Origin: an uncultured Thermoleophilia bacterium
Lineage (GTDB): Bacteria; Actinomycetota; Thermoleophilia; UBA2241
Direction: 5' to 3'
Assembly: GCA_963699725.1 (NCBI GenBank)
Contig: CAVOVA010000001.1
Span: 75,937-139,936, forward strand
Length of the DNA: 64,000 bases
The notes beneath the pieces were generated by a model. That model was not told the DNA's origin. It did no database searches and saw nothing but the letters and a program-made list of their open reading frames with translations. This document shows positions 1 through 46,934 of this stretch, piece by piece (the first letter of the stretch is position 1; each line of letters opens with the position of its first letter). Both the position numbers and the translations under genes were made by a program.

Positions 1-1232
1 ATGGCTTCGACGACCTCCTTCGTGTTGGCCATGTGCACGATCTGCTGACCACCGACGCTGAACCACACCTTGATCGGTGCGTCGCCGGAGTTGATCGCCT
101 TGACCATGGTGTCCGGATTGCACGTCCGCGCGGCGCCCATCTTGAAGCGGTCGATGCCGATGATCTTGCTCTTCATCTCGTCGGTGAGCGGCAGCTCGAG
201 AAAGACGTCCTCGATGAGGCCGGTCTCGGGCAGCACCCAGCTGACCATGCTGCCCGGGGCCTCGATGTTGCCGGCCAGGCCCATGAGGCAGGTGATGGCG
301 CGCAGCGTGTGACCGCAGTTGGCCTGCCGCTCCAGGGAGCTCCCGACCTGGATGCACCCCGGCGTGTCGACGGCCCACATGCGCGCCGCCTCGGTCACGT
401 GCTCCCGGGGGATCCAGCAGATGTCGGAGACCTTCTCCGGCGTGAAGTCGCTGACGCGCTCACGGAGCTCGTCGAACCCGAAGGTCCAGTCGTTCACGAA
501 CTCCTTGTCCCAGAGCTCCTCCTCGATGATCACGTTCATCATGCCCATCGCGAGGGCGCAGTCGGTGCCGGGACGAGGCTGGATCCAGAGCGACGCGCGC
601 GAGGCGAAGGCGCTGGCGCGCGGGTCGATGATGATGAGGTTCTTGCAGTACTCCAGTGAGTTGAGGTACCAGACGGCCATCTCCGAGTCGGCGCTGCTGA
701 TCTCCAGCTGCTTGGCCCACATGATCTGCGTCTTGGGGAACTCGCCGCCCCAGCCGTGGTAGTCGCAGTAGAGGCGGCCGTAGCCCGTGACCAGTCCATA
801 GAGGCCCAGGCGCGGGCTGTGGCACACGTAGCCGGGGGTGATCACGTTCCCGGTGCCGATCGAGCGGGACAGGCGGTGGGTGTAGCGGTTGTAGCCGCGG
901 CCGGTGCCCTGCGAGATGGCGATGGTCTCCGGTCCGTAGTCCCGGATCGCGTCCTTCATCTTGGCTTCGATGGTGTCGAGCGCCTCGTCCCAGGAGATGC
1001 GCTTCCAGTTGCCCTCGCCTTTGGCGCCGACGCGCTTCATCGGGTACTTGACCCGGTACGGGTTGTCGATGTGCTGGATGCTCGAGAGGCCCTTGGAGCA
1101 CATCGTGCCGTTGGTCAGCGAGTCGGGGTTTCCCTGGATGTGGACGATCACCCCGTCCTCGACCGTCACGATCACACCGCAGCCGCCGTGACAGCTCTTG
1201 CACGTGGTGAGGATCTGCTTGCGGTCAGCCAT
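1..1232 (-). CDS. Molybdopterin oxidoreductase catalytic subunit (DMSO-reductase family; TtrA/PsrA-like). Partial: C-terminus runs off the window start.
   Basis: Reverse-strand translation from the ATG at 1232 gives MADRKQILTTCKSCHGGCGVIVTVEDGVIVHIQGNP...ISWDEALDTIEAK. This carries the CxxCxxxC 4Fe-4S motif and conserved Mo-bisPGD N-terminal blocks. No twin-arginine signal is present. The ORF is absent from the track because it has no stop inside the window. The Shine-Dalgarno sequence GAAAGGGAAG lies upstream. Confidence 0.85.
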   Translation of the reverse strand, partial: MADRKQILTTCKSCHGGCGVIVTVEDGVIVHIQGNPDSLTNGTMCSKGLSSIQHIDNPYRVKYPMKRVGAKGEGNWKRISWDEALDTIEAKMKDAIRDYGPETIAISQGTGRGYNRYTHRLSRSIGTGNVITPGYVCHSPRLGLYGLVTGYGRLYCDYHGWGGEFPKTQIMWAKQLEISSADSEMAVWYLNSLEYCKNLIIIDPRASAFASRASLWIQPRPGTDCALAMGMMNVIIEEELWDKEFVNDWTFGFDELRERVSDFTPEKVSDICWIPREHVTEAARMWAVDTPGCIQVGSSLERQANCGHTLRAITCLMGLAGNIEAPGSMVSWVLPETGLIEDVFLELPLTDEMKSKIIGIDRFKMGAARTCNPDTMVKAINSGDAPIKVWFSVGGQQIVHMANTKEVVEA

Positions 1233-1266
1233 TGCTTCCCTTTCGTGACGGGCCCGGTGGCCGCCC

Positions 1267-2238
1267 TCAGTTCACGTTGGGCAGGACCGATCGGTAGATG
1301 CCGACCTTGAGGACCGAGTACTTCAGCGAGAACGCGCCGATGGTGTGGCAGACGATGGCCGCGATGAGCAGCGGCCCGGCCTGCGCCTCCTCCAGAAACA
1401 TGGTCGCGAACGAGATCGTCAGGGGGGTGATGATGCCGAGGACCACGATGCCGACCCAGAACACCCAAGCCGTGCTGCCGCTGATCAGGTCGCGGGCGGC
1501 CAGCTCGGCGGCCGAGTGCTTGCGGTACGCCTGCACGAGGTAGCCGAGGATGAGCAGGGCGTTGACGACGAGCAGGACGCGGCTCCATGACTCCAGCGTG
1601 GAGATGGCGAGGTCGTCCGTCGTCAGGCTGATGCCCATCGTGAGCGCCAGGCCGTCGGCGACGCCCATGAGCACGAACACGATGGGCAGCAGGCCCGTGT
1701 TCCAGAACGGCACGCTCTTGCAGTAGCTCATCGCGAAGCCGCAGTACACGCCGGTGAGCAGGATGAAGACGCCGGCGACGATGCTGGCGGCCCAGCTGAT
1801 CACGGTGACGACGTCGGTGGCGGAGCCGGTCACGACGTCGTTGTAGAGCAGGTACCACGCGACCATCTGCACGAGGCCGGCCGTCACGAAGACGATGGAG
1901 AAGAACATGCCGCGCGCCAGCCACGAGGTCTTCCAGGCCTTGGTGAACGGTGGGATGGCGCGCCAGAAGCGCAGCGGTCTGCCGAGGTACACCAGGTGCA
2001 GCGGCAGCTTGAAGAGCACGATGAGCGCCCAGCCGACGACGGTGGCCCACCACGCGCCCTCGGTGAGCCCGCCCAGCCCCGCGAGCAGGCCGACGAGGTA
2101 AAGGCCCATGCCGAGCGCGGAGAAGACCTCGGCGAGCCACACGAGGACGCCCTTGCCGGAGATCCACTCCTTCTGGCGCATGGGCTTGACCATCCACTCG
2201 TGCGTGACGAGCCACTGACGGCGGGTCTGCGCCTTCAT
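1267..2238 (-). CDS. NrfD/PsrC-family polytopic membrane anchor subunit of a Mo-oxidoreductase.
   Basis: MKAQTRRQWLVTHEWMVKPMRQKEWISGKG... followed by eight or more hydrophobic helices. Start ATG at 2238 overlaps the upstream stop (ATGA). It is sandwiched between the FeS and catalytic subunits. Confidence 0.8.
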   Translation of the reverse strand: MKAQTRRQWLVTHEWMVKPMRQKEWISGKGVLVWLAEVFSALGMGLYLVGLLAGLGGLTEGAWWATVVGWALIVLFKLPLHLVYLGRPLRFWRAIPPFTKAWKTSWLARGMFFSIVFVTAGLVQMVAWYLLYNDVVTGSATDVVTVISWAASIVAGVFILLTGVYCGFAMSYCKSVPFWNTGLLPIVFVLMGVADGLALTMGISLTTDDLAISTLESWSRVLLVVNALLILGYLVQAYRKHSAAELAARDLISGSTAWVFWVGIVVLGIITPLTISFATMFLEEAQAGPLLIAAIVCHTIGAFSLKYSVLKVGIYRSVLPNVN

Positions 2239-3041
2239 GGCTCGACCTCCCCGGCCGGCGCGGGCTGAGCGCACTTGGGCTCGACGTGCAGGCGCTTCGC
2301 CGCGTCGCGGTCGATGGAGCTCAGATGCTGGATGTGGCTCCCGGTCTGCGCACGCCTCGGCGCGACGTTGGACGGTACGCCTCCCAGCCTGTAGTCGACG
2401 TAGTAGACCGAAGGATCGGTGCCGTACTCGGTGCGCAACTGAAAGCCACCGTGCTTGCGGATCAGCATCGAGACGTTGCTGTCCGGATCGTCGAGATCGC
2501 CGAAGGTGAGGGCGCGGGCCTGGCAGACGTTGACGCAAGCCGGAGAGGCGTCACGGTCGACGCCGGGCTGCAGGCCTCTGCTCATCCCGGCGTCGATGCG
2601 CTCGACGCAGAAGTTGCACTTCTCGGTCGTTCCCACCTGGTGCGGGAAGATCTTCTGGCCCTTGTTCTCGAAGCCGGTCTTCTCGTAGCCGGGGAAGTAG
2701 CCGGGGTTCTTGTCCTTCGAGAGGAAGGTGCGGTTCTGGTAGGGGCAGGCGATGACACAGTAGCGGCAGCCGATGCACTTGTCGGAGTCGATGACGACGA
2801 TGCCGTCCTCACGCTGGTGCGAAGCCTCGGTCGGGCAGACGTGCGTGCACGGCGCGTCGGCGCACTGGTTGCAGCGCACCGGGTAGGTGGACACGTCCAC
2901 CGCACCGCCCTCGTCCACCTCATAGGCGATGAGCTTGACCCAGGTGATGTGCAGGGGCAGGAAGTGCTCGACCCTGCAGGCGGCGACGCAGGCGTGACAG
3001 CGCATGCACTTCGCCAGATTGATGACCATTCCCCATCTCAT
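2235..3041 (-). CDS. 4Fe-4S ferredoxin-type electron-transfer subunit (DmsB/PsrB/TtrB-like).
   Basis: MRWGMVINLAKCMRCHACVAACRVEH...CNQCADAPC...CIGCRYCVIACPY...CNFCVERID. Four Cys clusters are present. No Tat signal. The start could instead be upstream at 3092. Confidence 0.85.
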   Translation of the reverse strand: MRWGMVINLAKCMRCHACVAACRVEHFLPLHITWVKLIAYEVDEGGAVDVSTYPVRCNQCADAPCTHVCPTEASHQREDGIVVIDSDKCIGCRYCVIACPYQNRTFLSKDKNPGYFPGYEKTGFENKGQKIFPHQVGTTEKCNFCVERIDAGMSRGLQPGVDRDASPACVNVCQARALTFGDLDDPDSNVSMLIRKHGGFQLRTEYGTDPSVYYVDYRLGGVPSNVAPRRAQTGSHIQHLSSIDRDAAKRLHVEPKCAQPAPAGEVEP

Positions 3042-3167
3042 GGGCGGACTCCTGTCGTAGGGACTGGGCCTCGTCTCATGACTCTCCAACACTGACGCGT
3101 GTCAGAGTCAAAGACAGGCCTTCCGGTCCGTGGAGTGCCGGGCCGGAGCCGGTTCCGGAGAGCCCCG

Positions 3168-3195
3168 GTGGGCCGGCCGCACAAGACCGGCCCAC
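3168..3195 (-). terminator. GC hairpin (GTGGGCCGG-N10-CCGGCCCAC) about 25 nt downstream, in the minus sense, of the beta1 stop.
   Basis: Perfect 9-bp inverted repeat seen in the sequence. No clear U-tract, which is common at high GC. Confidence 0.3.
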
Positions 3196-3219
3196 CGGAT
3201 CCGCTCCGCGAGCTGTCTG

Positions 3220-6738: not shown

Positions 6739-7575
6739 CTACCCGGCGTTCCAGCCGAGGTAGGTCGAGAGCAGGGTCGCGGTGTGCTTCACCGCTTCGG
6801 CGCAGCGCGTGCGCTCCTCGGGGCCGAAGCGGCCGATGGGGGTGACCACGGAGATCGCCGCGACCACGTCGCCCACCTGGTCGCGGACCGGCGCGCCGAC
6901 GGCGCAGAGACTCGCGTACAGCCCTGCGTCGTCGTAGGCGACGTCGTCGCGGGCGACGCGGTCGAGCTCTTCCGCGAGCGCCTGCGGATCGGTCACCGTG
7001 TTCGGCGTGAGCTTCGGCAGGGGTCGCGCCAGCAGCTCGGCGCGTTCCTCCCCGGGCTTGAAGGCCGCGAAGATCTTGCCGTGGACGGAGGCAAGGTTGC
7101 CGATGATCCGCCCGGGCGCCGTGCGGCGCTGGAAGGGTCTGGTGGTGTCGATGCAATCCACGCAGACCGGCCGGTCGTCGACCTCGAGCGCCAGGGTGAC
7201 GGACTCGCCGGTCTCTTCGGCCAGGGCCTCGAGGAAGGGCCTGGCGGTCTCGACGAAGTCGGAGAACCCGTCCGACACGTACGCCAGCGCGAGCGCGGCC
7301 GGACCGACGTGGTACTTGTTGGTGACGCGGTCGCGGATGAGGAAGCTGGAGCCCTCGAGCGTGCGCACCATCCGGTAGGCCGTCATGCGCAGCAGGCCCG
7401 TCTGCTCGGCGATCTCGTCGATGGTCCATTCGCGGTGGTCGACGTCGAACAGGGAGAGCACTGAGAGGCCGCGCGCGAGCGCACGCACGGAGAGCGCATC
7501 GGAGCCGGCGGCCGGACCGGACGTCCTGAGCGGGGGTTTGGCGCGCTTCCCCCGTGTCGTGCCCGAAGCTCCCAT
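6739..7575 (-). CDS. IclR-family transcriptional regulator (IclR-1).
   Basis: MGASGTTRGKRAKPPL...ALSVRALARGLSVLSLF...IAEQTGLLRMTAYRMVRTLE... HTH plus effector domain. It lies 70 bp upstream of alpha1 on the same strand. The reading frame is embedded in a spurious 1140-aa antisense ORF in the track. Confidence 0.8.
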   Translation of the reverse strand: MGASGTTRGKRAKPPLRTSGPAAGSDALSVRALARGLSVLSLFDVDHREWTIDEIAEQTGLLRMTAYRMVRTLEGSSFLIRDRVTNKYHVGPAALALAYVSDGFSDFVETARPFLEALAEETGESVTLALEVDDRPVCVDCIDTTRPFQRRTAPGRIIGNLASVHGKIFAAFKPGEERAELLARPLPKLTPNTVTDPQALAEELDRVARDDVAYDDAGLYASLCAVGAPVRDQVGDVVAAISVVTPIGRFGPEERTRCAEAVKHTATLLSTYLGWNAG

Positions 7576-7800: not shown

Positions 7801-10329
7801 ATGACTGAAGAGGTCTACACGAACTGCACGAACTGCGGCCCCGTGTCCGTGTACGTGAAGGACGGTGCGGTCGTACGCATTCGGCCTCTCGTCGCCGACG
7901 AGACCGACTTCCGGCCCTGGGTGATCGAGGCGGACGGCGAGCAGTACTCCCCGCCGAAGAAGTTCAATCTTGCGCCGATGGTGCACGCCGAGCGCCGCCG
8001 CCTCTACTCGCCGGAGCGCATCAAGTATCCGATGAAGCGCGTCGACTTCGACCCGAATGGCGAGCGCAATCCGCAGAACCGCGGCAAATCGGCCTACGAG
8101 CGCATCTCCTGGGACGAGGCGCTCGACATCGTGTCGGGCGAGATCAAGCGCGTCAAGGACACCTACGGCGGTTCGGCGATCAGCGGGCTGACCTCCTCGC
8201 ACCACAACTGGGGCATCGTCGGCTACAAGATGGGCCCGTTCCCGCGCTTCATGAACCTCCTCGAGTTCACTCCCGTCCTGGACAACCCGGACAGTTGGGA
8301 AGGCTGGCACTGGGGCGCGACGCACTCGTACGGCTTCTACTGGCGCCTCGGCATGCCTGAGCCCTTCGATCAACTGGCGGACGCGCTCCAGAACGCCGAG
8401 ATGATCGTCCTCTGGTCCAACGACCCCGACTCCACCCGAGGCACCTACGCGGGCCAGGAGTCGGCGCTGTGGCGTACGTGGCTCAAGGAGAAGGGCGTCC
8501 AGACGGTCTTCATCGATCCTTTCCACAACTACACGAACGCGTTGTTCGACAAGGCCAAGTGGATCGCCCCGCGGATGGGGACGGACACGGCGATGGCGAT
8601 GGCGATCGCCTACGTGTGGATCACCGAGGACACGTACGACAAGGAGTACGTCGCCGACCGGACCATCGGCTTCGAGGAGTTCAAGCCCTACGTGCTCGGC
8701 GAGACAGACGGCGTGCCCAAGACGCCGGAGTGGGCGGCCGTGGAGTGCGATGTGGACGCGCGCGTCATCCGCACCCTCGCGCGCGAGTGGGCGAGCAAGC
8801 GCACCATCCTCTCGGGCGGCGCGCGCGGCGGCGAAGGCGGCGCCTGCCGTACGGCTTACGGCACCGAGTGGGCGCGCATGATGGTCCTGCTGCAGGCCAT
8901 GCAGGGGCTGGGCAAGCCCGGCCGCAGCATCTGGGGCGTCGCCATGGGTGCGCCGGCCGACTTCGAGACCTGGTTCCCGGCCTACGCCGACCCCACCGGC
9001 CGTATCTCGCTCTCCAAGCTGGTCGCCGACTTCATTCCGGCCAATCCGACCAAGCAGCGCCTCTGGCGGCTCACGGTGCCGGACGCCATCCTCGACCCGC
9101 CGGTGGACTGGTACGGCGCCGGCTTCTGCGGCCAGTCGCTCGAGCAGCAGTTCGAGCACTTCGAGTACCCCGCCGAGGGCTGCTCGGAGATCAAGCTCTT
9201 CTACCGCTACGGCGGGTCCTTCATGGGCACCATGTCGGACACCACGAAGTGGGTGCGCATGTACCAGAGCCCCAAGCTCGAGTTCGTCGTCAACCAGGAC
9301 ATCTGGTACAACGGCGAGACCCGGATGGCCGATGTGATCCTCCCGGCCTGCACCAACTTCGAGCGCGACGACATCGGCGAGTTCGCCGCCTGCGGCGGGT
9401 ACACGACGAACTCGCACACGGGCAACAACTACCGCGTCATCGTGCGCGAGAAGAAGTGCATCGAGCCGCTCTGGGAGTCCAAGTCGGACTACCAGATCTT
9501 CGCCGACCTCTCCGAACGTTTGGGCATGTACGACGAGTTCACCGACGGCGGCAAGACCGAGCTCGACTGGGTCAGACTCTTTTTCGATGCCTCCGACCTG
9601 CCCAAGCTCGTCGACTGGGAGACCTTCGACCGGAAGGGCTACCACATCATCAACGCGCCCGAGGACTACAAGCCGACGCCGATGATGCGCTGGTTCGCCG
9701 AAGGCCGCGCCTGCGACACGCCCGACCTCATGAACCCCAAGCGCGGCACCGACAAGGCGCACGAGCTCGGCACCTACAGCGGCAAGATCGAGTTCTCTTC
9801 CGAGAGCCTCAAGGCGCACTTCCCCGACGACCCCGAGCGGCCGGTATACCCGCAGTACCTCGAGAGCTGGGAGGGTCACCACACCACCGAGCTCTTCGAG
9901 AAGTACCCGCTCCAGCTGCTCTCGCCCCACCCGCGCTTCTCGTTCCACTGCCACTACGACAAGCACACCGACTGGCTGGACGACATCCCCGTCCATCGCA
10001 TCAAGAAGGACGGCTACGCCTGGTGGCCGGCCAGGCTCAACCCCGGGGACGCGGAGGCGCGCGGCGTGCGCAACGGCGACATCGTCCGGCTCTACAACGA
10101 CCGCGGATCGGTGCTCTGCTGCGCCGTGGTGACCGGGCGCGTGCGGCCCGGCGTCGTGCACAGCTACGCCTCCTCGGCGAAGTACGATCCGCTGAGCCCA
10201 GGCAAGGCCGACGCGATCGACAAGGGCGGGTGCGTGAACATGCTCACGCCCTCACGCATGCTCAGCAGGAACGTCCCCGGCATGACGCCCAACTCGTGCC
10301 TCATCGACGTCGAGAAGTGGGAGGGCTGA
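7801..10329 (+). CDS. Pyrogallol-phloroglucinol transhydroxylase large-subunit-like molybdoenzyme (AthL family), paralog 2.
   Basis: MTEEVYTNCTNCGPVSVYVKDGAVVRIRPL...RIKYPMKRVDFDPNGERNPQNRGKSAYERISWDEALDIV...NPDSWEGWHWGATHSYGFYWRLGMPEPFDQLADALQNAEMIV...ILPACTNFERDDIGEFA... Block-by-block similarity to P. acidigallici AthL recalled from memory. Shine-Dalgarno GGAGGTAGAGG. Confidence 0.9.
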   Translation: MTEEVYTNCTNCGPVSVYVKDGAVVRIRPLVADETDFRPWVIEADGEQYSPPKKFNLAPMVHAERRRLYSPERIKYPMKRVDFDPNGERNPQNRGKSAYERISWDEALDIVSGEIKRVKDTYGGSAISGLTSSHHNWGIVGYKMGPFPRFMNLLEFTPVLDNPDSWEGWHWGATHSYGFYWRLGMPEPFDQLADALQNAEMIVLWSNDPDSTRGTYAGQESALWRTWLKEKGVQTVFIDPFHNYTNALFDKAKWIAPRMGTDTAMAMAIAYVWITEDTYDKEYVADRTIGFEEFKPYVLGETDGVPKTPEWAAVECDVDARVIRTLAREWASKRTILSGGARGGEGGACRTAYGTEWARMMVLLQAMQGLGKPGRSIWGVAMGAPADFETWFPAYADPTGRISLSKLVADFIPANPTKQRLWRLTVPDAILDPPVDWYGAGFCGQSLEQQFEHFEYPAEGCSEIKLFYRYGGSFMGTMSDTTKWVRMYQSPKLEFVVNQDIWYNGETRMADVILPACTNFERDDIGEFAACGGYTTNSHTGNNYRVIVREKKCIEPLWESKSDYQIFADLSERLGMYDEFTDGGKTELDWVRLFFDASDLPKLVDWETFDRKGYHIINAPEDYKPTPMMRWFAEGRACDTPDLMNPKRGTDKAHELGTYSGKIEFSSESLKAHFPDDPERPVYPQYLESWEGHHTTELFEKYPLQLLSPHPRFSFHCHYDKHTDWLDDIPVHRIKKDGYAWWPARLNPGDAEARGVRNGDIVRLYNDRGSVLCCAVVTGRVRPGVVHSYASSAKYDPLSPGKADAIDKGGCVNMLTPSRMLSRNVPGMTPNSCLIDVEKWEG

Positions 10330-10333
10330 TCAA

Positions 10334-11167
10334 ATGGCGCGACTGAGCCTTCTGATCGATGTGACCAGGTGCACCGGCTGCTACAACTGCTTGCTGGCGT
10401 GCCGTGACGAGCACTACGGCAACGACTACCCGGGCTACTCGGCCGCACAACCCCTGAACGACCAGTTCTGGATGCAGGTCAAGGAGATCGAGCGCGGCTC
10501 CTACCCGCGTCCCAAGCTCGACTACGTCGCCGTCCCGTGCCAGCACTGCGCGGACGCGCCGTGCATCGACGCCGCCACAGGCGAAGCCGTCTACCGGCGC
10601 GACGACGGCGTCGTGATCATCGACCCGGTGAAGGCCAAGGGCCAGCCGCAGATCGCGCAGGCCTGCCCGTACCGGGTCGTCTTCTGGAACGCGGACCTCG
10701 AGATCCCGCAGAAGTGCGGTATGTGCGCCCACCGGCTCGACGCCGGCGAGAAGCAGCCGCGCTGCTCCGAGTCGTGTCCCACCGGCGCCATGGTGTTCGG
10801 CGACCTCGACGACCCGCAGTCGGAGATCGCGCAGCGTGTCGCGGCCCTCGAGACCGAGGTGCTGCATCCCGAGTACGGTTGCTCGCCGCTGGTGCGCTAC
10901 CACGGTATCCCCAGGCGCTTCGTTGCCGGCGAGGTCGTCCTCGACGACGTCGCCGATGTCTGCGCCCGGGGGGTCAAGGTCGTGCTCGAGGGCGAGGGCG
11001 TGCGCGACGAGACCACCTCGGACGTCTTCGGCCAGTTCGAGTTCGAGGGCCTCGTCCATCGCGGCTCCTACACGATCTCGGTCGAGCACCCGGGCTACGT
11101 GGCGCGGCAGCTGGACGTGCGCACCGACACCGACGTGTACGTGGGCGAGGTGCGCCTCACGCGCTGA
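10334..11167 (+). CDS. Transhydroxylase small-subunit-like FeS protein (BthL-like) with C-terminal CarbopepD-regulatory-like domain, paralog 2.
   Basis: MARLSLLIDVTRCTGCYNCLLACRDEHYGNDYPGY...CQHCADAPC...CPYRVVFWN...CGMCAHRLD...VFGQFEFEGLVHRGSYTISVEHPGY. Starts 5 bp after the alpha2 stop. Confidence 0.9.
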   Translation: MARLSLLIDVTRCTGCYNCLLACRDEHYGNDYPGYSAAQPLNDQFWMQVKEIERGSYPRPKLDYVAVPCQHCADAPCIDAATGEAVYRRDDGVVIIDPVKAKGQPQIAQACPYRVVFWNADLEIPQKCGMCAHRLDAGEKQPRCSESCPTGAMVFGDLDDPQSEIAQRVAALETEVLHPEYGCSPLVRYHGIPRRFVAGEVVLDDVADVCARGVKVVLEGEGVRDETTSDVFGQFEFEGLVHRGSYTISVEHPGYVARQLDVRTDTDVYVGEVRLTR

Positions 11168-12471: not shown

Positions 12472-12543
12472 GCCGCCTTGCCTCGGACCCGGTCCGGCGC
12501 ATCTGATGCCGTGCGGGAGCGGGGCCAGAGACGAGGAGGGCAC

Positions 12544-13305
12544 ATGAACGTGTTCGACATCGCCGGACGGTGCGCCGTGGTCGTCGGCGGCGGCGGGCTC
12601 GGCGGGGAGATCGCCCGGGGGCTGGCCGACCACGGCGCTCACGTCGCCGTCGCCGACGTCGATGAGGAGCGTGCCGCCGCATCCGTCGCCGCTATCGCAG
12701 GTCAAGGGGTCGACACGCTCGGCCTCGCCATCGACGTGACCGACGAGCGTTCGGTGCGCCGCGCCGTCACCGACGTGCTCGCGACCTTCCCCAGGATCGA
12801 CATCCTGGTCAACGCTGCCGGGGTGACTGTGCGCAAGCGGGCGGAGGATCTCCCGGTGGACGACTGGCGGCGCGTCCTGGAGATCAACGCCACCGGCACC
12901 TTCGTCTGCTGCCAGGCCTTCGGCGCGGAGATGGCGCGTGGCGGTGGGGGCGCGATCGTCAATCTGTCCTCCGTGCGAGGGCGGTTCGGTGCGACCTTCG
13001 GGCAAGCGGAGTACTCGGCGAGCAAGGGCGCGGTCGACTCCCTGACACGCTCGCTCGCCGTGCAGTGGGCCGAGTTCGGTATCCGTGTGAACGCGGTCGC
13101 GCCGACCTTCGTCGAGACCGACCTCACGCGGGCCGTGCTCGCCGACGACGCCTTCGCCGCCGGCCTGCGCGCAAGCATTCCCATGGGGCGCTGGGCCGAG
13201 GCTGCCGACGTGGTCGGTCCCGTGCTCTTCCTCGTCTCGCCGGCGGCGGCGTTCGTCACCGGCCAGATCCTCTACGTGGACGGCGGTCTCACGGCGCGCG
13301 TCTGA
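12544..13305 (+). CDS. Short-chain dehydrogenase/reductase (SDR). Candidate phloroglucinol reductase or 3-hydroxy-5-oxohexanoate dehydrogenase.
   Basis: MNVFDIAGRCAVVVGGGGLGGEIARGLA... (TGxxxGxG Rossmann motif) ...NAAG...SSVRG...YSASKGAV (YxxxK)...VNAVAPTFVET. Pathway role is inferred from context only. Confidence 0.85.
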   Translation: MNVFDIAGRCAVVVGGGGLGGEIARGLADHGAHVAVADVDEERAAASVAAIAGQGVDTLGLAIDVTDERSVRRAVTDVLATFPRIDILVNAAGVTVRKRAEDLPVDDWRRVLEINATGTFVCCQAFGAEMARGGGGAIVNLSSVRGRFGATFGQAEYSASKGAVDSLTRSLAVQWAEFGIRVNAVAPTFVETDLTRAVLADDAFAAGLRASIPMGRWAEAADVVGPVLFLVSPAAAFVTGQILYVDGGLTARV

Positions 13306-13395
13306 GCGTTCGCGGACCTGGCGGCAGGGCGCTCGGGGGATGCTTGACCTGCTCCCGGCCATCTGCAAGAGTGTTCGCATCATGGACTAGCAGTT

Positions 13396-13406
13396 CCGTA
13401 TCGTGG
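13396..13406 (+). promoter_or_regulatory. CCGTATCGTGG motif upstream of SDR-2.
   Basis: Exact 11-mer. Also present at 18805 (+) and 16145-16155 (-). Confidence 0.4.
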
Positions 13407-13556
13407 GCATTCCGCCCTTGAGCGGACGGCCGGATGGGACCCTGGTGACCGGGTCGCCGGGCTGTGGGTGAGCACGCTCGTCACAGCCGCATCGCGCGAA
13501 AGCCGCTCCCCGGTCCGTCGCCCGTGAACCGGACACGACGCGAGAGGAGACGTGCG

Positions 13557-14357
13557 ATGGCTGAGCGTGAGATCTGGAGCGTCGACAAGATCCGCGGCCT
13601 GTTCGATCTGACCGGCAAGGTCGCGATCGTGACCGGCGGGTCAGGGGCCTTCGGCCACGATGCCGCCAAGGCGATGGCCGCCTTCGGCGCGAGTGTGGTC
13701 GTCACGAGCCGGCGCGTCGAGAACGTCGAGTCGGCCGCGGCCGACATCGCCGGGGCGACCGGCGCGCGGGTGCTGCCCGTCCCGTGCGATGCGGTCGACC
13801 CGGAGAGCGTCGAGGCCATGGTGCAGAAGACCGTCGACGAGTTCGGCAAGGTCGACATCCTCGTCACTGCCGCCGGCCAGGCCAACCGCTTCGCCGCCGA
13901 GGAGTTTCCGCTCGACGAGTGGCAGAAGGTCATGGACTCGCTCGTCAAGGGTACCTATGTCGTCTGCCAGGCTGCCGGCAAACGCATGATCGCCCAGGGC
14001 GGCGGCAAGATCATCACCGTCGGGTCCGTGCGCGGCGAGCTCGGGCATCCCGGAGGGTATTCCGCGTACGGCACCGCCAAGGGCGCGGTACACCTGCTCA
14101 CCAAGCAGCTCGCCGCTGAGTGGGCCAAGTACCATATCAACGTGAACTCCATCGCCCCCTGCATCTTCTGGACCCCGCTCACACAGCAGGTCCTCGACGA
14201 CCCCGAGCTCTACAAGATCTTCATGCAGCGCATCCCGTGGGGCCGCGCCGCGGATCCTCAGGACTTCATGGGCGCGACGGTGTACCTCGCCTCGGCGGCG
14301 TCCGACTTCGTCACCGGGGACATCCTGATGGTCGACGGCGGCAGCACCGCCGCCTGA
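13557..14357 (+). CDS. Short-chain dehydrogenase/reductase (SDR) no. 2. Candidate for the second reductive/oxidative step of the phloroglucinol pathway.
   Basis: MAEREIWSVDKIRGLFDLTGKVAIVTGGSGAFGHDAAKA...YSAYGTAKGAV...VNSIAPCIFWTP. Shine-Dalgarno GAGAGGAGA. Confidence 0.85.
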   Translation: MAEREIWSVDKIRGLFDLTGKVAIVTGGSGAFGHDAAKAMAAFGASVVVTSRRVENVESAAADIAGATGARVLPVPCDAVDPESVEAMVQKTVDEFGKVDILVTAAGQANRFAAEEFPLDEWQKVMDSLVKGTYVVCQAAGKRMIAQGGGKIITVGSVRGELGHPGGYSAYGTAKGAVHLLTKQLAAEWAKYHINVNSIAPCIFWTPLTQQVLDDPELYKIFMQRIPWGRAADPQDFMGATVYLASAASDFVTGDILMVDGGSTAA

Positions 14358-14380
14358 CTCTCCGGCTGAAGGGGGCCGCA

Positions 14381-15331
14381 GTGAGCACCACGGGCGCTGA
14401 GTGCGTCGCCGTCGTCGGGGGCGGCATGATGGGCGTCGGCGTGGCCCAGGTCTTCGCCGCCGCCGGACATGAGGTCGCGCTCCAGGATGTGTCTCAGGAG
14501 GCCCTCGAGCGCGCCCCGGGCACCATCTCGGCGAACCTGGCCTTCCTCGCAGAGCACGGTCTCTTCGCGGCCGACGGCGTCGACGACGCCGTCGGCCGCG
14601 TGCGCACCACCGCGGAACTCACGGAGGCGGCCGCCGGCGCCGACGTCGTCGTCGAGTGCGTGTTCGAGGATCTCGCCCTCAAGCAGGAGGTCTTCGAGCG
14701 TCTCGACGCCGTGTGCCCGGTCGAGACGATCCTGTGCACCAATACATCGGTGATGAGCATCACCGAGATCGGCGCCCGCGCCGTGAACAGGCAGCGGGTC
14801 GTCGGCACGCACTTCTGGAACCCGCCGTACCTGATCCCGCTGGTCGAAGTCGTGCGCACCGAGCACGTCGATCCAGCGGTGGTCGAACGCACCATGGACC
14901 TCCTGCGACGCGTGGGCAAACACCCGATCGACTGCAAGAAGGACGTTCCCGGCTTCGTCGCCAATCGCCTGCAGCATGCCCTCTGGCGGGAGGCCATCTC
15001 GATCGTCGAGCGAGGCATCGCCGACGCCGAGACGGTGGACGAGAGCATTCGCTACGGTCCCGGTCTGCGCCTGCCGATCCTGGCGCCGATGGAGAACGCG
15101 GACATGGTGGGTCTCGACCTCACGCTGGCGATCCACGACTACATCCTGCCCCACCTCGAGGCTTCGGGCGAGCCGTCGCCGCTCTTGCGCGCGAAGGTCG
15201 AGGCCGGGGATCTCGGATTCAAGAGCGGCAAGGGGTTCGCCGAGTGGACGCCCGAGTCGGCTGAGGCGTCGCGGAGGCGTTTGGCGGCCTACCTGGTGCA
15301 CGTGCTGGGCGATCCCGAGCGGGGGTTCTGA
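14381..15331 (+). CDS. 3-hydroxyacyl-CoA (3-hydroxybutyryl-CoA) dehydrogenase, NAD-binding.
   Basis: VSTTGAECVAVVGGGMMGVGVAQVFAAAGHEVALQD...NTSVMSITEI...GTHFWNPPYLIPLVEVV...GFVANRL. GTG start with Shine-Dalgarno GAAGGGGG. Confidence 0.8.
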   Translation: MSTTGAECVAVVGGGMMGVGVAQVFAAAGHEVALQDVSQEALERAPGTISANLAFLAEHGLFAADGVDDAVGRVRTTAELTEAAAGADVVVECVFEDLALKQEVFERLDAVCPVETILCTNTSVMSITEIGARAVNRQRVVGTHFWNPPYLIPLVEVVRTEHVDPAVVERTMDLLRRVGKHPIDCKKDVPGFVANRLQHALWREAISIVERGIADAETVDESIRYGPGLRLPILAPMENADMVGLDLTLAIHDYILPHLEASGEPSPLLRAKVEAGDLGFKSGKGFAEWTPESAEASRRRLAAYLVHVLGDPERGF

Positions 15332-15353
15332 GACGGCCGAGCGGCGCGACGGA

Positions 15354-16082
15354 GTGCAGGTCCTCTCGCGCGCGGCGCTGCTGCTGCGGGCGCTCTCCGT
15401 CACGCCTGAGGGCCTGACTCCAATCGCGCTCGCCGACCAGGTCGGCCTGCCGCGCTCCACCTGCTACCGCATCGTCGGCGCGCTCTGCCAGGAGGGGCTC
15501 ATGCGCCTCTCGCCCTCGGGCAAGCTGCACATCGGCGCCGGTCTCATCAGCCTCGCCGCCGCCGGCCGGCGCGATCTGCGGCACGAGTCGGCTCCGCTCC
15601 TCGAGCGCCTTTCACTCGAGTTGCACGAGACCGTGGAGCTCGTCGTGCTCGACGGCGACGAGGCGCTGTTCACCGACCAGTACGTCCCGCAACGCTCGCT
15701 GCGCGTGGTGGCGGAGGTGGGCGACCGCTTTCCGCTCTACTGCACCGCGTGCGGCAAAGCGCTGCTGGCCGAGCTGCCGGCCCCGGAGGCGGCGCGTCTG
15801 GTACCGCCGCGTCTCGAGCCGCTCACCCGCCACACCATCGTCGACCGGGACGCGCTCTTCCGGGAGGTCGAGGAGGCGCGGACCACCGGCGTGGCCTACG
15901 ACCACCAGGAACACACGCTCGGCGTGTCCGCGGTGGGCGCCGCCCTCAAGGATGCCGGCGGCGCCATGGCCGCCATCACCGTGGCCATGCCGGCCGCTCG
16001 CCTCGACGGCCACGAGGAGCGCATCTCCGCCGCGCTCCTCCGTACTCGCGACGACATCCAGCAGGCCATCAACGCGAGCTGA
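15354..16082 (+). CDS. IclR-family transcriptional regulator (IclR-3).
   Basis: VQVLSRAALLLRALSVTPEGLTPIALADQVGLPRSTCYRIVGALCQEGLM...HETVELVVLDG...VGDRFPLY... Paralog of IclR-2 and IclR-4. The start codon (GTG at 15354) is uncertain. Confidence 0.7.
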   Translation: MQVLSRAALLLRALSVTPEGLTPIALADQVGLPRSTCYRIVGALCQEGLMRLSPSGKLHIGAGLISLAAAGRRDLRHESAPLLERLSLELHETVELVVLDGDEALFTDQYVPQRSLRVVAEVGDRFPLYCTACGKALLAELPAPEAARLVPPRLEPLTRHTIVDRDALFREVEEARTTGVAYDHQEHTLGVSAVGAALKDAGGAMAAITVAMPAARLDGHEERISAALLRTRDDIQQAINAS

Positions 16083-16137
16083 CCGGCGGCCGCCTCCAAC
16101 GCCGCATCCGTATTGACAGCGGATTCGGGACGTCTTA

Positions 16138-16155
16138 GCGTATCCACGATACGGC
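16138..16155. promoter_or_regulatory. Palindromic operator candidate CGTATC-CAC-GATACG; its minus strand reads CCGTATCGTGGATACG. Upstream of the cyclase gene.
   Basis: Perfect inverted repeat that contains the shared 11-mer. Flanking CCGTAT (16108) and ATGCGGATAG (16170) half-sites. Confidence 0.45.
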
Positions 16156-16281
16156 ACTTTGTGTCCGAGATGCGGATAGTCGAGCATCGGGAGCACGGCC
16201 GCCACATCATCGTCGGCGGGCAGTCCGGGTGCGCGAGAGCCCGTCTGCCGTGACTGTAACGAGACCGAGGAGAGTAGGCCC

Positions 16282-17241
16282 ATGGGCAAGAAGGTATTCG
16301 TTGACCTCACACACCCGTTCAGCGCGGAGATCCCCCGGTGGCCGTACTTCGTGAAGCCGGTCATCGACTCCATGCACACCCTGGCGAAGGGCGGTGTCCT
16401 CACGCAACGCATCGACTGCGTGCAGCACACCGGCACCCACGCCGACGCTCCTCGTCACGTCATGGAGCGCGAGTTCAACGGCAAACGTGCCCGCTACACG
16501 CACGAGATGCCGGTGGACGCCTACACCGGCGACGCCGTCTGCCTCGACATCCAGATCGAGAAGTGGGGCCTCATCCTGCCCGCGCATATCGAGGACGCCT
16601 GCGCGCGCGCCGGCATCAAGCCTGAGGAGCTCAAGGGCATGGTCGTGTGCCTCAACACCGGCATGCACCGCAAGTTCGACGACTCCATGGACTACTACCA
16701 GTACTCGTGCGGCACCGGCGTCGAGGCCGGCAGGTGGTTCGTCGAAAAGCAGGTCAAGGTCGTGGCCATGGACATGCAGGCCCTCGACCATCCGCTCCAC
16801 ACCGCGATGGGCAAGAACGGCCCGCCGCAGATGAACCTCCCGGGCGCCTCCGGCCGTCCGATCACCGAGGAGTACATCGAGAAGTACGGCATCGAGGCCT
16901 ACGCCGAGTTCGAGAAGGCCGTCTACATCGAGGTGCACGGCCAGGACGCCTACGACGCCAAGTTCGGCGACCTCGAGGCGATCGGCTGCGAGGGGACCTG
17001 GGAGCCCTGCCACAAGCAGATGCTCGGCCACGGCATCGTCGGCGTCGAGAACCTCGGCGGCGACCTGGACAAGGTCAGGGGCAAGCGGTTCCGCTTCTTC
17101 TGCTTCCCGATCCGCTGGTACATGGGCGACGGCTCCATGGTGCGCTGCGCCGCCGAGATCGACGAGGACGACCTGAACGACGTGCCGGATCGCACGTACA
17201 CTTACGCCGGTACCGGCTACGGTCCCGGAGCCGGCTACTGA
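16282..17241 (+). CDS. Cyclase-family (kynurenine-formamidase-like, PF04199) metal-dependent hydrolase. Candidate dihydrophloroglucinol cyclohydrolase.
   Basis: MGKKVFVDLTHPFSAEIPRWPY...IDCVQHTGTHADAPRH (HxGTHxDxPxH metal motif)... The function is assigned by family plus context. Confidence 0.75.
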   Translation: MGKKVFVDLTHPFSAEIPRWPYFVKPVIDSMHTLAKGGVLTQRIDCVQHTGTHADAPRHVMEREFNGKRARYTHEMPVDAYTGDAVCLDIQIEKWGLILPAHIEDACARAGIKPEELKGMVVCLNTGMHRKFDDSMDYYQYSCGTGVEAGRWFVEKQVKVVAMDMQALDHPLHTAMGKNGPPQMNLPGASGRPITEEYIEKYGIEAYAEFEKAVYIEVHGQDAYDAKFGDLEAIGCEGTWEPCHKQMLGHGIVGVENLGGDLDKVRGKRFRFFCFPIRWYMGDGSMVRCAAEIDEDDLNDVPDRTYTYAGTGYGPGAGY

Positions 17242-17371
17242 TCCGCCTGTCGCCCCCGGGGGCCGACGGCGTGGCGCCCGCCGGCGTTCGCCACGGGACG
17301 GCACGGTGTGGCGCTTGACGGCGTTCGTAGTCATTCGGAGAAGCCGAACACGGCTCGAGAAGGAGTGAGGC

Positions 17372-17722
17372 ATGGAGGTCACGAGGTACGACGAGGCCCC
17401 GAGCTACGAGGCCCCCGGACATTTCGACGTGTACGGCCTGCGCCTGCAGGGGTTCGAGGTCAGCAAAACCCGCAACTTCTGGATGAGCATCTCCCACTTC
17501 CTGCCCGGGGGCGGCTGCGAGTACGTCGCCACCCCGATCGAGAAGGTCTACTTCGTGCTCGAGGGTGAAGTCACCGTCAAGACGGAGGAGGGCGAGGTCA
17601 TCCTCAAGAAGTGGGACTCCATCTACCTGGCGCCGGACGAGGCCCGCTCGATCCTGAACCACACCAACTCGCCGGCGACGATGCTCGTCGCAATCCCCTA
17701 TCCGGAGCCCCGCGAGTTCTGA
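17372..17722 (+). CDS. Cupin-domain protein.
   Basis: 116 aa: ...NFWMSISHFLPGGGCEYVATPIEKVYFVLEGEVTV... Two-motif cupin pattern. Confidence 0.6.
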   Translation: MEVTRYDEAPSYEAPGHFDVYGLRLQGFEVSKTRNFWMSISHFLPGGGCEYVATPIEKVYFVLEGEVTVKTEEGEVILKKWDSIYLAPDEARSILNHTNSPATMLVAIPYPEPREF

Positions 17723-17902
17723 GCCGGGACTGCGGGAGCGTGTCCCGGGTTCTCCGGCGGGGACGACGCGCGCACGCGGACGGTACGGGGGCGGCGACTG
17801 AGCAGCCGACCGTCCCCGCCCGTCCGGGCACGGACCTCCGCCCTCGCCTGTGCACCCGCGCGCCAGACGATTCCCGACCCCACGACCTCCGAGGAGGCCA
17901 TC

Positions 17903-18733
17903 ATGCCCAGACCCATCATCACCGCGGCGCTCACGGGTCCCGTGGCGACCAAGGCCGACAATGCCGGCATCCCCGGGAACGTGGCGGAGATAGCCGCCGA
18001 CGCCAGGGCCTGTCACGAGGCCGGAGCTGCAGTCATCCACATCCACCTCCGCGACGATCAGGGCAACATGACGGCCGATCTCGACGTCGCACGACGTACG
18101 GTCGAGGCCGTCCGCGAGGTCTGTCCGGGCATCACGCAGCTCTCCACCGGGGGGCTGCAGTTCACCTACGAAGAGCGTATGCGCCTGGTCGAGGCGAAGC
18201 CCGCGATGGCCACACTCAACCCTTGCACGATGACCTTCGCCACCGCGGAGTTCCGCAACCCGCCCAAGCAGATGATGGAGCTGGCGGCCCGGATGATGGA
18301 GCTCGGCGTCAAGCCCGAGGTCGAGATCTACGACACCGGCCACCTCGAGATGATGCTCTACCTGCTACACAAGGAACTCCTCGTCCGGCCGCTGCAGGTC
18401 TCGTTCGTCATGGGCGTCCGGGGGGGCATGAAGGGCGACCCGGGACTGCTCGCGTATCTCGTGCGCGAGTTGCCCGAGGGAACCAGCTGGCAGGTCATCG
18501 GCGTGGCCAAGGCCAACCTCCCGATGACGGCGGTCGGTCTGGCCATGGGAGGGAACGCGCGCACGGGCATGGAGGACACCATCACGCTCGACAAGGGTGT
18601 GCCCGCGGACTCGAACCGGCAGCTCGTCGAGCGCCTCGTCGGCATCGCCCAGTCGATGCAACTGCAGCCCGCGTCCGTCGCCGACGTCGTGGAGCGGCTC
18701 CAGCTCCATCCGGAGCTCGTCAACGGAGCCTGA
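17903..18733 (+). CDS. Beta-keto-acid cleavage enzyme (BKACE / 3-keto-5-aminohexanoate cleavage family, DUF849). Candidate triacetate acetoacetate-lyase.
   Basis: MPRPIITAALTGPVATKADNAGIPGNVAEIAADARACHEAGAAVIHIHLRDDQGNMT...QLSTGG...EERM. Canonical BKACE N-terminal blocks. Confidence 0.8.
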   Translation: MPRPIITAALTGPVATKADNAGIPGNVAEIAADARACHEAGAAVIHIHLRDDQGNMTADLDVARRTVEAVREVCPGITQLSTGGLQFTYEERMRLVEAKPAMATLNPCTMTFATAEFRNPPKQMMELAARMMELGVKPEVEIYDTGHLEMMLYLLHKELLVRPLQVSFVMGVRGGMKGDPGLLAYLVRELPEGTSWQVIGVAKANLPMTAVGLAMGGNARTGMEDTITLDKGVPADSNRQLVERLVGIAQSMQLQPASVADVVERLQLHPELVNGA

Positions 18734-20470: not shown

Positions 20471-21202
20471 ATGCTCATGACCGTGGTGCTCCAGACCACC
20501 GGTCTCAACAAGTCCTTCGGTGGCGTGAAGGTCATCGACGACTTGAGCGTGCAACTCCGCGAAGGCGAAGCACTGGGCATCGTCGGGCCGAACGGCGCCG
20601 GGAAGACGACGTTCTTCAACCTCGTCACCGGCGTGTATCGGCCCGACTCGGGTCGGGTCGAGTTCAAGGGCAAGGACGTGACGCACGTGTCGCGGCAAGA
20701 CATCTGCCGGCTCGGTCTGGGTCGTACCTACCAGATCCCGAAGCCGTTCTCGGACATGAGCGTGTTCGAGAACGTGCTGGTGTGCGCCGCGTATGCCCGC
20801 GGCGCCGGCGAGCGCGCCAGCTACCGGCGCTGCGTCGAGGTGCTCGAGCAGACGCGGCTCGCCCACAAGGCCAATCATCAGGCGGGCGCCCTGCCCCTGC
20901 TCGACCGCAAGCGGCTCGAGCTGGCCAGGGCGCTCGCCGGCGATCCCACCGTCTTGCTACTGGACGAGATCGCCGGCGGCCTCACCGAGACCGAGGTCGA
21001 GGTCCTCATCGGCACCATCAAGGAGCTGCGCCAGGGCGGCATCTCGATCGTCTGGATCGAGCACATCGTCCACGCGCTGCTCGCGGTCGTCGACCGCATC
21101 TGCGCCATCAGCTTCGGCGCCCTGCTCATCGAGGGCGACCCCAACGAGGTCATGTGCAGCGACGAAGTGCAGGCCTGCTACATGGGGGGGACGCCGATAT
21201 GA
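20471..21202 (+). CDS. ABC transporter ATP-binding protein (LivG-like).
   Basis: GPNGAGKTT Walker A, LSGGQ-like signature and Walker B LLLDE. Confidence 0.85.
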   Translation: MLMTVVLQTTGLNKSFGGVKVIDDLSVQLREGEALGIVGPNGAGKTTFFNLVTGVYRPDSGRVEFKGKDVTHVSRQDICRLGLGRTYQIPKPFSDMSVFENVLVCAAYARGAGERASYRRCVEVLEQTRLAHKANHQAGALPLLDRKRLELARALAGDPTVLLLDEIAGGLTETEVEVLIGTIKELRQGGISIVWIEHIVHALLAVVDRICAISFGALLIEGDPNEVMCSDEVQACYMGGTPI

Positions 21203-21897: not shown

Positions 21898-21901
21898 TCG
21901 C

Positions 21902-25483: not shown

Positions 25484-25670
25484 GCTGGCCTTTCCGGCGT
25501 ACACTGGGCTGGTTACGCTTCACGGGGCGCCGGGGCGCGATGGTATGTCTGGGTGCCGCCTCCGTGGCCTATAGTATAGGCAGAGTCGCCCTGCGGGCAT
25601 GCGGGCTGCTCGACGAGACATCGTGGCCGCTGCGGACCCTGACGTCTTCGCGACCACCGAGAGGATGAGC

Positions 25671-45077: not shown

Positions 45078-45227
45078 GAACCTGAAGGAGCGACCCCGGG
45101 GCGCCGGCCGCCATGCGGCGCCGGCGCCCCGCGGAGCCCTTCTGGGCTCCGCTTCGACCGGCGACTCGTCCGGCCTGCCGGTCGCTCCCCGTCCGCGGCG
45201 CCCCGCGCGCCGCGCTGGAGGTACACG

Positions 45228-45869: not shown

Positions 45870-45902
45870 TCACACCTGACGACCGTAAACGAGAGGGAAG
45901 CC

Positions 45903-46766: not shown

Positions 46767-46934
46767 TCGCGACGCCGGCGGCGGGCGCGGCGGCCCTCCG
46801 GGCCGCGGTACCCGCCGCCGGCCAAGTATGCTTCACTGAATCCAGACTGAAGACGGAGACGGGAAGGACGGCGGCCGGACTGGTGTGCCATGGCCGCCCG
46901 ACGAACGCGGAAGTGCGAAGGTGGAGTTGATGTG

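Follow-up and report, generated by a model that had tools for sequence, protein, structure and literature searches.

Three genes at the left end of a 64,000-nucleotide stretch of DNA from an uncultured Thermoleophilia bacterium (contig CAVOVA010000001.1; the whole stretch is hereafter the window) encode an iron–sulfur (FeS) protein, a membrane protein of the NrfD type and a catalytic subunit of the kind that binds Mo or W through two molybdopterin guanine dinucleotides (bis-MGD). We propose, at somewhat better than an even chance, that this trio is a cytoplasm-facing, quinone-coupled Mo/W enzyme that removes (less likely adds) ring hydroxyls of polyphenols. The parts of the proposal differ in strength: we hold the architecture to be probable, a polyhydroxybenzene substrate is an even call and, given such a substrate, quinol-driven reductive dehydroxylation is slightly favoured over oxidation. 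We infer from the evidence below that the three proteins form one complex and that a quinone is the redox partner, as well as the class of substrate and the direction in which electrons flow. The placing of a catalytic subunit of the acetylene hydratase (AH) clade on an inverted NrfD anchor would be a new combination of known kinds, namely complex iron–sulfur molybdoenzymes (CISM) and catechol dehydroxylase-like enzymes, that we have not found described; the searchable literature yielded no description of an NrfD-linked or cytoplasmic AH-like enzyme, or of NrfD with pyrogallol.

Gene organization of the trio

The genes lie on the minus strand; FeS comes first, then NrfD and then the catalytic gene (B-C-A), an order given in the initial annotation of this DNA and borne out by the open reading frames and their Pfam and NCBIfam domains:

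2235..3041, minus strand: FeS subunit gene (ATG 3041, stop 2235; 268 aa; Fer4_11 and related domains in Pfam)
1267..2238, minus strand: NrfD/PsrC-type membrane subunit gene (ATG 2238, stop 1267; 323 aa; PF03916)
1..1232, minus strand: catalytic bis-MGD (Mo or W) subunit gene (ATG 1232; runs off the window at base 1; 410 codons visible)

The NrfD start codon and the FeS stop share an ATGA overlap, and the catalytic ATG is located 34 nt past the NrfD stop, preceded by the ribosome-binding site GAAAGGGAAG. Given this overlap and the short second gap with its good ribosome-binding site, the three genes look like one translationally coupled unit. A locus scan that covered one genome per species returned 80 loci, and the FeS-NrfD-catalytic order is kept in ~78 of 81. 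The N-terminus of the catalytic subunit reads MADRKQILTTCKSCHGGCG, in agreement with the initial annotation. The FeS gene had previously been started at GTG 3092; rather, ATG 3041 is backed by homologs, which keep the N-terminus MRWGMV in 77 loci, by a Shine-Dalgarno sequence (AGGAG, 8 nt upstream) and by independent gene calls, which also give a protein of 268 aa.

The catalytic subunit and its relatives

The visible part of the catalytic subunit comprises the domains Molybdop_Fe4S4 (PF04879) and Molybdopterin (PF00384), to which full-length relatives (707–716 aa) add PF01568. The rest of the gene can be read from a locus with 93.6% identical DNA (L089), giving a total of ~710 aa when two long-read frameshifts are allowed for. 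The N-terminal region contains the motif of the FS0 cluster, C11-x2-C14-x3-C18...C45, followed by Lys47. An AlphaFold2 (AF2) model of the subunit, built from a nine-sequence alignment, reached a pLDDT of 43 and was not used for fold searches.

Since genes ordered B-C-A are also found as ttrBCA and srdBCA, the trio had been likened to tetrathionate (Ttr) and selenate (Srd) reductases. The likeness extends to the gene order but not to the family. Against NCBIfam, the full-length member P0012 scores 300 bits with Fdh-alpha (cut-off 666), 281 with PhsA (NF012032; cut-off 694), 117 with ArrA (cut-off 1600) and 74 with TtrA (NF011567; cut-off 1750), and thus meets none of the curated models, remaining far under every cut-off. 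Clear orthology to characterised thiosulfate or tetrathionate reductases, which the initial annotation had named as a reason to abandon its own view, is not seen by these profiles. Rather, the best solved relative of the full-length member P0008 is AH (2e7z) with 312 bits, compared with 198 for PsrA and 167 for FdhF; for the window fragment alone the scores are 159 for AH and 129 each for PsrA and FdhH. That the trio reduces polysulfide, thiosulfate, tetrathionate or selenate, as an ordinary enzyme of the Psr/Phs/Ttr/Srd group, is therefore most improbable and largely refuted by the PhsA, TtrA and ArrA scores, despite the shared gene order, the presence of PhsA among the best NCBIfam matches and the name ‘polysulfide reductase chain C’ carried by some NrfD homologs. 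Indeed, the known PsrABC, PhsABC, TtrBCA and SrdBCA complexes share with the trio the three-subunit CISM plan, a PsrB/NrfC-type FeS subunit and an NrfD/PsrC anchor, but they are Tat-exported (by twin-arginine translocation) and face the periplasm, whereas ~79 trio loci are without a Tat signal, the anchor polarity is reversed (see below) and the genomic context is one of polyphenols, not sulfur.

The active-site residues are similar, but distinct, to those of AH. Cys137 aligns with the Cys that ligates W in AH, such that the metal ligand is kept, but the water-activating Asp beside the second FS0 Cys is replaced by His15, and a His is present in every family member inspected. Together with the invariably co-encoded four-cluster FeS protein, the exchange of Asp for His argues for redox chemistry and not hydration, as far as residues and gene content can tell. 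A non-redox hydratase, with the FeS and NrfD proteins serving another partner or only as an anchor, would agree with AH being the closest solved relative and with the retained Cys ligand; we regard it as highly unlikely, given that the four-cluster FeS and NrfD proteins are invariably co-encoded from overlapping genes in ~78 loci, an arrangement that AH is without. A true acetylene hydratase is rejected by the His found across the family in place of the catalytic Asp. The AH of Pelobacter acetylenicus resembles the catalytic subunit in being cytoplasmic, in its N-terminal [4Fe-4S] cluster and in its Cys metal ligand, but is a non-redox monomer with no FeS or membrane partners.

By these scores and residues, the catalytic subunit is not one of the Ttr/Psr/Srd-like enzymes and probably belongs to the AH/catechol dehydroxylase clade. 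AH is its nearest solved relative, as has been published for the catechol dehydroxylases. When 1.8 billion cluster representatives (50%-identity clusters) were searched exhaustively, the family proved to be tight, with its own outlier 54% identical and the next relatives at ≤44%, and embedded in a very large uncharacterised superfamily of 1567 representatives at E ≤ 1e-30. The nearest of the 50%-identity clusters bear generic names only, and Tat signals are present in some superfamily members and absent in most. Two superfamily members have unusual architectures: P0282 (983 aa) is a fusion with a four-cluster FeS domain ahead of the AH-like catalytic domain, and P0249 (1158 aa) has a long Cys-rich C-terminal extension that by eye looks like an Fe-hydrogenase-type module.

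Missing export signals and a predicted inverted anchor

Neither the catalytic nor the FeS subunit carries a twin-arginine signal, as the initial annotation had noted. An in-frame TGA is located 13 codons 5' of the catalytic ATG, with no ATG, GTG or TTG in between, and the longest possible extension of the FeS protein (to GTG 3092) would add 17 residues without an RR motif. Thus, a Tat signal from an alternative upstream start, which was looked for, is not possible. A search for a Tat-like motif in all three proteins of the trio found none, and alignments with the PhsA, DsrO, TtrB and NrfC profiles begin only at about profile position 40, such that their signal-peptide region has no counterpart. 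The same pattern is observed in the related loci, where 70 of 79 catalytic genes leave room for ≤19 residues ahead of the first CxxC (the few open frames that are longer come from reading through the overlapping NrfD region, in DNA of high GC content), and where no RR motif is found in the FeS homologs of 79 loci.

The FeS protein contains 16 Cys residues in four CxxCxxCxxxC-type groups, enough for four [4Fe-4S] clusters. It scores 177 bits with the DsrO profile, 145 with ArrB and 134 with TtrB, all starting past the signal region, and 131 and 106 bits with the PDB entries of ArrB and PsrB, respectively. These matches mark it as a four-cluster electron-transfer subunit of the NrfC/PsrB/ArrB type. 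The membrane subunit scores 60 bits with PF03916 (cut-off 25.8) and has eight hydrophobic helices in its sequence, and the same eight are present in its AF2 model (pLDDT 73, pTM 0.77). Sequence and profile searches of this subunit against the PDB gave no match to PsrC or ActC; with the model, Foldseek returned ActC (8k9e_C) and PsrC (2vpw_C) as top matches, both with probability 1.00.

The charge distribution of the NrfD subunit is strongly asymmetric. In an alignment of 79 homologs, the N-terminus, three loops on the same side and the C-terminus together carry on average 17.1 Lys and Arg residues, compared with 0.3 in the four opposite loops; the bias has the same direction in 79 of 79 homologs, and the smallest difference in a single sequence is 11. 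Applied to this bias, the positive-inside rule predicts a cytoplasmic location for both termini, which would make the subunit inverted relative to PsrC. Invariant residues of NrfD include H13-E14-W15, K77 and H81, on the face that also bears the termini. This contrasts with the crystal structure of PsrC, where both termini are on the P-side and PsrB docks there (PMC8076601). The absent export signals and the reversed anchor polarity are two independent lines from which the FeS and catalytic subunits, and with them the active site, very probably face the cytoplasm, an orientation already expected in the initial annotation. Overall, the trio has the parts of a CISM, namely a bis-MGD catalytic subunit with an FS0 Cys motif, a four-cluster FeS protein and an anchor with the NrfD fold, but not the Tat export and periplasmic orientation that are usual, though not universal, in this class.

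The only NrfD-type anchor so far proposed to be inverted is SoeC (PMC8076601). The SoeABC sulfite:quinone oxidoreductase is similar to the trio in being NrfD-anchored and in facing the cytoplasm, and a few close NrfD homologs have been named ‘SoeC’ by JGI, next to the others named as polysulfide reductase subunits. The likeness is one of architecture only, as the two differ in catalytic clade, gene order and genomic context. SoeA is larger than the catalytic subunit of the trio, and the soe genes are ordered A-B-C. We consider a SoeABC-type enzyme to be very improbable and reject it on the basis of the ~710-aa AH-like catalytic subunit, which meets no curated model, and the B-C-A gene order; no sulfur-oxidation genes were found near the trio loci.

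Further CISM operons, ordered A-B-C, were observed in two Dehalococcoidales loci (L061 16289-20528; L002 13168-17360 and 1-3158). Their catalytic subunits measure ~877 aa and their NrfD proteins ~293 aa, and the FeS proteins begin with M(A/P)RWGMVID. These operons are also Tat-less and hence provide no Tat-dependent control for NrfD polarity. Cytoplasm-facing, NrfD-anchored molybdoenzymes may be a broader unrecognised class in Dehalococcoidales.

Polyphenol genes around the trio

In the window, the trio is preceded by two PgtL-like gene pairs, a regulator gene and, further along, a set of candidate pathway genes:

3042-3219, minus strand: spacer between beta1 and the FeS gene, 178 nt
3165-3198, minus strand: GC-rich hairpin with a 14-bp stem, ~20 nt past the beta1 stop
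4038-3220, minus strand: beta1 (272 aa; Fer4_11 and CarboxypepD_reg domains in Pfam)
6668-4041, minus strand: alpha1 (875 aa; directly upstream of beta1; AhtL-like_1st domain in Pfam)
6739..7575, minus strand: IclR-family regulator gene, directly upstream of alpha1 in the same orientation and divergent from alpha2
7801-10329, plus strand: alpha2 (AhtL-like_1st, Molybdopterin and Molydop_binding domains), of the second, divergently transcribed PgtL-like pair
10334-11167, plus strand: beta2, the partner of alpha2
12478..18733, plus strand: phloroglucinol-pathway candidates by Pfam, in families that match the Clostridium scatologenes pathway

Alpha1 aligns with the PgtL structure (4v4c_A) over nearly its full length with 442 bits, which marks alpha1 as a genuine relative of these enzymes and alpha1-beta1 as a pyrogallol-phloroglucinol transhydroxylase/resorcinol hydroxylase-like pair. 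The characterised anaerobic phloroglucinol pathway of Clostridium scatologenes consists of PGR, TfD, DPGC and TAL (PMC10470551). The genes at 12478-18733 encode two SDR proteins (PGR candidates), a 3-hydroxyacyl-CoA dehydrogenase-like protein (3HCDH; TfD candidate), an IclR protein, a cyclase-family protein (DPGC candidate), a cupin and a BKACE protein (TAL candidate). The aromatic-catabolism context that had been ascribed to the trio is thus supported by the PgtL-like alpha1 and by this candidate pathway, which is complete.

The trio has the same orientation as alpha1-beta1, as stated previously; the distance is 178 nt from the beta1 stop at 3220 and not ~130 bp. This spacer folds at -98 kcal/mol (z = -4.0), and it contains the hairpin at 3165-3198, for which an equivalent with another stem sequence is present just past the beta1 stop in six other loci (L001, L045, L047, L049, L052 and L067). 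A simple terminator scan did not flag the hairpin, as it has no T-run, and the leader right before the FeS ATG (CCAGTCCC..ACAGGAGTCCGCCC) is conserved. The hairpin is a candidate for a terminator lacking a U-tract, an attenuator or an mRNA-stabilising element. In addition, most Dehalococcoidales loci and many from Actinomycetota have the trio but no alpha/beta pair. Since so many lineages have the trio without alpha/beta, it is a self-contained module recruited to polyphenol clusters and not a subunit set of the transhydroxylase; the view of the trio as an appendage of alpha1-beta1 is not upheld by the alpha/beta-free loci and the conserved hairpin in between.

Distribution and synteny

The hosts of the trio span at least six phyla (Chloroflexota, Actinomycetota, Desulfobacterota, Acidobacteriota, Pseudomonadota and SAR324) and include Dehalococcoidales, Thermoleophilia, Gaiellales and Desulfatiglans; all are represented by metagenome-assembled genomes (MAGs). 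Across the related loci, the catalytic subunits are 68-89% identical to that of the window, and several Chloroflexota MAGs carry two copies of the trio; in some Dehalococcoidales genomes there are several.

The closest loci (L045, L047 and L067, all Thermoleophilia MAGs), in which alpha1 is 91% and the catalytic subunit 82-89% identical, share the arrangement alpha2-beta2, IclR, alpha1-beta1 and trio, followed by a third PgtL-like alpha. The alpha2-beta2 region is also syntenic with L001, L045 and L047. In the closest relatives, a GYD-domain gene and then the third alpha lie downstream of the catalytic gene, which corresponds to a position beyond the left edge of the window (L089 13256-16472, L045 12361-14925, L047 12301-14919). 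The third alpha is 52% identical to alpha2 and apparently has no beta of its own; in L089, genes for MttB-family methyltransferases come next.

Polyphenol genes, either a PgtL-like alpha or homologs of the phloroglucinol pathway, are present within 10 kb of the trio in 42 of 49 non-Chloroflexota loci. The association is established via alpha in Desulfobacterota (12 of 12 loci), Acidobacteriota (3 of 4) and Thermoleophilia (7 of 10), and, among the other Actinomycetota, through homologs of 3HCDH, SDR and BKACE, which 13 of 18 loci have. The trio is often flanked by IclR homologs in Actinomycetota. In the 13 Actinomycetota loci just named, which have no alpha/beta pair, a tungsten enzyme of the AOR family (AFOR_N and AFOR_C domains, ~620 aa) and an IclR gene are directly upstream of the trio, with SDR, 3HCDH, BKACE and ABC-transporter genes close by:

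AOR-type loci: L010 5194-8082; L006, L013, L018-L020, L023-L025, L029, L037, L042, L054

In Chloroflexota, the trio is usually located away from polyphenol genes. A different neighbourhood is observed there in 12-14 Dehalococcoidales-type loci, where a cytochrome b561-type gene (encoding a dihaem membrane protein, PF01292), a UbiA prenyltransferase gene and a UbiE/COQ5-like methyltransferase gene come directly after the trio, in its orientation:

Cytochrome b/UbiA/UbiE loci: L058 11995-14900; L055, L057, L059-L061, L063, L064, L066, L068, L071, L074

The cytochrome b, UbiA and UbiE genes are absent from a second subtype in Dehalococcoidales (L069-L081), in which NrfD is shorter. The UbiA and UbiE-like products resemble the final steps of menaquinone synthesis, and judging from these families the arrangement looks like a quinone-reactive module with private quinone finishing. 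The presence of these three genes directly after the trio supports a quinone as its partner, such that the quinone linkage suggested in the initial annotation is plausible.

Proposed reaction and electron transfer

We suggest that the inverted NrfD subunit provides a quinone/quinol site on the cytoplasmic side of the membrane, beside the FeS subunit. On the basis of the cofactor motifs and the established CISM structures (PsrABC), electrons would pass between this site, the four clusters of the FeS subunit (FS4 to FS1), FS0 with Lys47, and the Mo/W-bis-MGD ligated by Cys137. There, a polyhydroxylated benzene ring of tannin or flavonoid origin, the substrate class suggested by clade membership and gene neighbourhood, would lose (less likely gain) a hydroxyl; candidates are 1,2,3,5-tetrahydroxybenzene, a compound of the pyrogallol or catechol type, and one derived from hydroxyhydroquinone. 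Coupled to the quinone pool, the reaction would either supply products to the PgtL/RhL-type enzymes and the phloroglucinol pathway or keep them in redox balance. Taking the middle hydroxyl off a pyrogallol-type ring, for example from 1,2,3,5-tetrahydroxybenzene to yield phloroglucinol, would complement the neighbouring hydroxylating and transhydroxylating enzymes.

The reductive direction is favoured because every characterised redox member of the AH-related clade is reductive. These are the catechol dehydroxylases of Eggerthella and Gordonibacter (PMC7028382), which exist in two forms: one is exported by Tat and has a membrane anchor besides its FeS subunit, and the other is a smaller, soluble, Tat-less enzyme whose FeS protein is small (PMC7028382; PMC11585353). 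With the E. lenta enzymes Dadh, Hcdh and Cadh the trio shares bis-MGD, AH as the closest characterised relative, a polyphenol context, a four-cluster FeS protein and a membrane anchor. With the Gordonibacter enzymes Dodh, Cldh and Gp Hcdh it shares bis-MGD, a Tat-less catalytic subunit of similar size (~770 aa in Gordonibacter), the relation to AH and the polyphenol context. By these descriptions the trio is set apart from either form, being Tat-less and ~710 aa, yet combined with a four-cluster FeS protein and an NrfD anchor. An AH-like gene has also been reported from the 3,5-dihydroxybenzoate cluster of Thauera aromatica AR-1, where its loss impairs growth; it may be the nearest genetically studied relative.

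The opposite direction, which the initial annotation had preferred, is less likely, although it has a real share of the probability. Here the enzyme would hydroxylate or dehydrogenate an aromatic intermediate and pass the electrons to the quinone pool, for example by forming the cosubstrate 1,2,3,5-tetrahydroxybenzene from pyrogallol or phloroglucinol, by oxidising hydroxyhydroquinone or by acting as an electron outlet for the PgtL/RhL-type hydroxylases. The evidence for the architecture applies equally to both directions. SoeABC, the only other NrfD complex proposed to be inverted, works oxidatively as a substrate:quinone oxidoreductase (PMC8076601), and RhL-type enzymes, as found beside the trio, are oxidative hydroxylases in nitrate reducers (PMC10084136). 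Many hosts (Desulfobacterota, Acidobacteriota, Betaproteobacteria) are respirers that would gain from electrons fed to quinone, and the Dehalococcoidales cytochrome b could complete a redox loop. On the other side, the characterised redox members of the clade are reductive throughout the literature covered (PMC7028382), and ring hydroxylation is already performed by the Ser-ligated PgtL/RhL clade that is present beside the trio.

Two comparisons had been drawn for an oxidative role. PadBCD is a membrane-bound molybdoenzyme with a cytoplasmic aromatic substrate and a quinone partner, with the gene order padBCD and a catalytic subunit larger than that of the trio, and the analogy is functional only. 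The comparison with hydroxyhydroquinone dehydrogenase (BtdLS) fails, as its membrane subunit BtdS belongs to the DoxX/D family (PMC10084136), whereas that of the trio is NrfD.

A variant that joins both directions, which we consider doubtful, is a ‘split transhydroxylation’ performed by the trio together with the PgtL/RhL hydroxylases. One ring position would then be hydroxylated oxidatively and another dehydroxylated at the expense of quinol, with the two steps connected by electrons cycled via the quinone pool.

Several points weigh against quinol-driven dehydroxylation of polyphenols by a cytoplasm-facing complex. At least 150 uncharacterised clusters outscore the 312 bits of AH against the catalytic family, so function cannot be transferred by homology. 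The predicted topology is based on the positive-inside rule and the absent signal peptides, and the N-terminal 27 residues of NrfD, with an invariant HEW motif, have low confidence in the AF2 model. Because of the conserved hairpin between beta1 and the FeS gene, co-transcription of the trio with alpha1-beta1 cannot be assumed. Most Dehalococcoidales loci are without polyphenol genes near the trio, and the substrate there, perhaps everywhere, may not be a polyphenol. In addition, the identity of 68-89% between phyla is well above what is usual in families whose paralogs differ in substrate. Finally, a cytoplasmic reductase that oxidises quinol and has its two sites on the N-side would conserve no energy alone.

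Other features of the window

The base composition of the window ranges from GC 0.63 to 0.73. After the pathway genes, a gene for a solute-binding protein with a Tat signal (RRDFLKTAGA) is located at 19024-20394, followed by branched-chain-type ABC transporter genes at 20471-23862. A V4R-domain protein with a GGDEF diguanylate cyclase is encoded at 25599-26837 (plus strand), adjoining the third IclR gene (24036-24815); V4R domains are associated with the sensing of small hydrophobic or aromatic ligands. A gene for the LarC nickel-insertion protein is present at 41909-43201. The plus-strand genes at 43368-49368 encode formate-tetrahydrofolate ligase, FolD and a NuoE/NuoF-like fusion (2Fe-2S thioredoxin-like, Nuo51 and NADH_4Fe-4S domains), and their predicted products suggest that the host is anaerobic and possibly acetogen-like. 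At 49575-53824 (plus strand) there are two paralogous genes for amino-acid permeases whose N-termini are nearly identical (…AEELAFARKASGLV…); they lie in the part of the window that has the lowest GC (0.63-0.65, compared with ~0.70 elsewhere).

Significance

The anaerobic degradation of tannins and flavonoids is considered either to restrict or to allow the loss of carbon from peat and sediment, as discussed in the ‘enzyme latch’ debate (PMC10470551), and the conversion of differently hydroxylated benzenes to phloroglucinol is known from only a few cultured bacteria. The trio family is very conserved and horizontally spread, and it is found beside polyphenol pathways in uncultured Thermoleophilia, other Actinomycetota, Desulfobacterota and Acidobacteriota. 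Automatic annotation names its members as a polysulfide, nitrite or sulfite reductase component or as a ‘selenocysteine-containing dehydrogenase’, names that would mislead metabolic reconstruction from metagenomes. The anchor would be the second upside-down one of the NrfD type after the hypothesised SoeC, and the family is sequence-rich enough for testing the idea. In the most far-reaching view, which we likewise hold to be doubtful, the trio would be the founding example of a class of cytoplasm-facing, quinone-coupled aromatic dehydroxylases (or hydroxylases), and the Dehalococcoidales trio with its cytochrome b and quinone-finishing genes could be a self-contained respiratory module. Split transhydroxylation, if it occurs, would funnel polyhydroxybenzenes derived from tannins and flavonoids into phloroglucinol. 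As the trio is spread over anaerobes of peat, soil and sediment from at least six phyla, it could then represent a major unrecognised route of anoxic polyphenol turnover.

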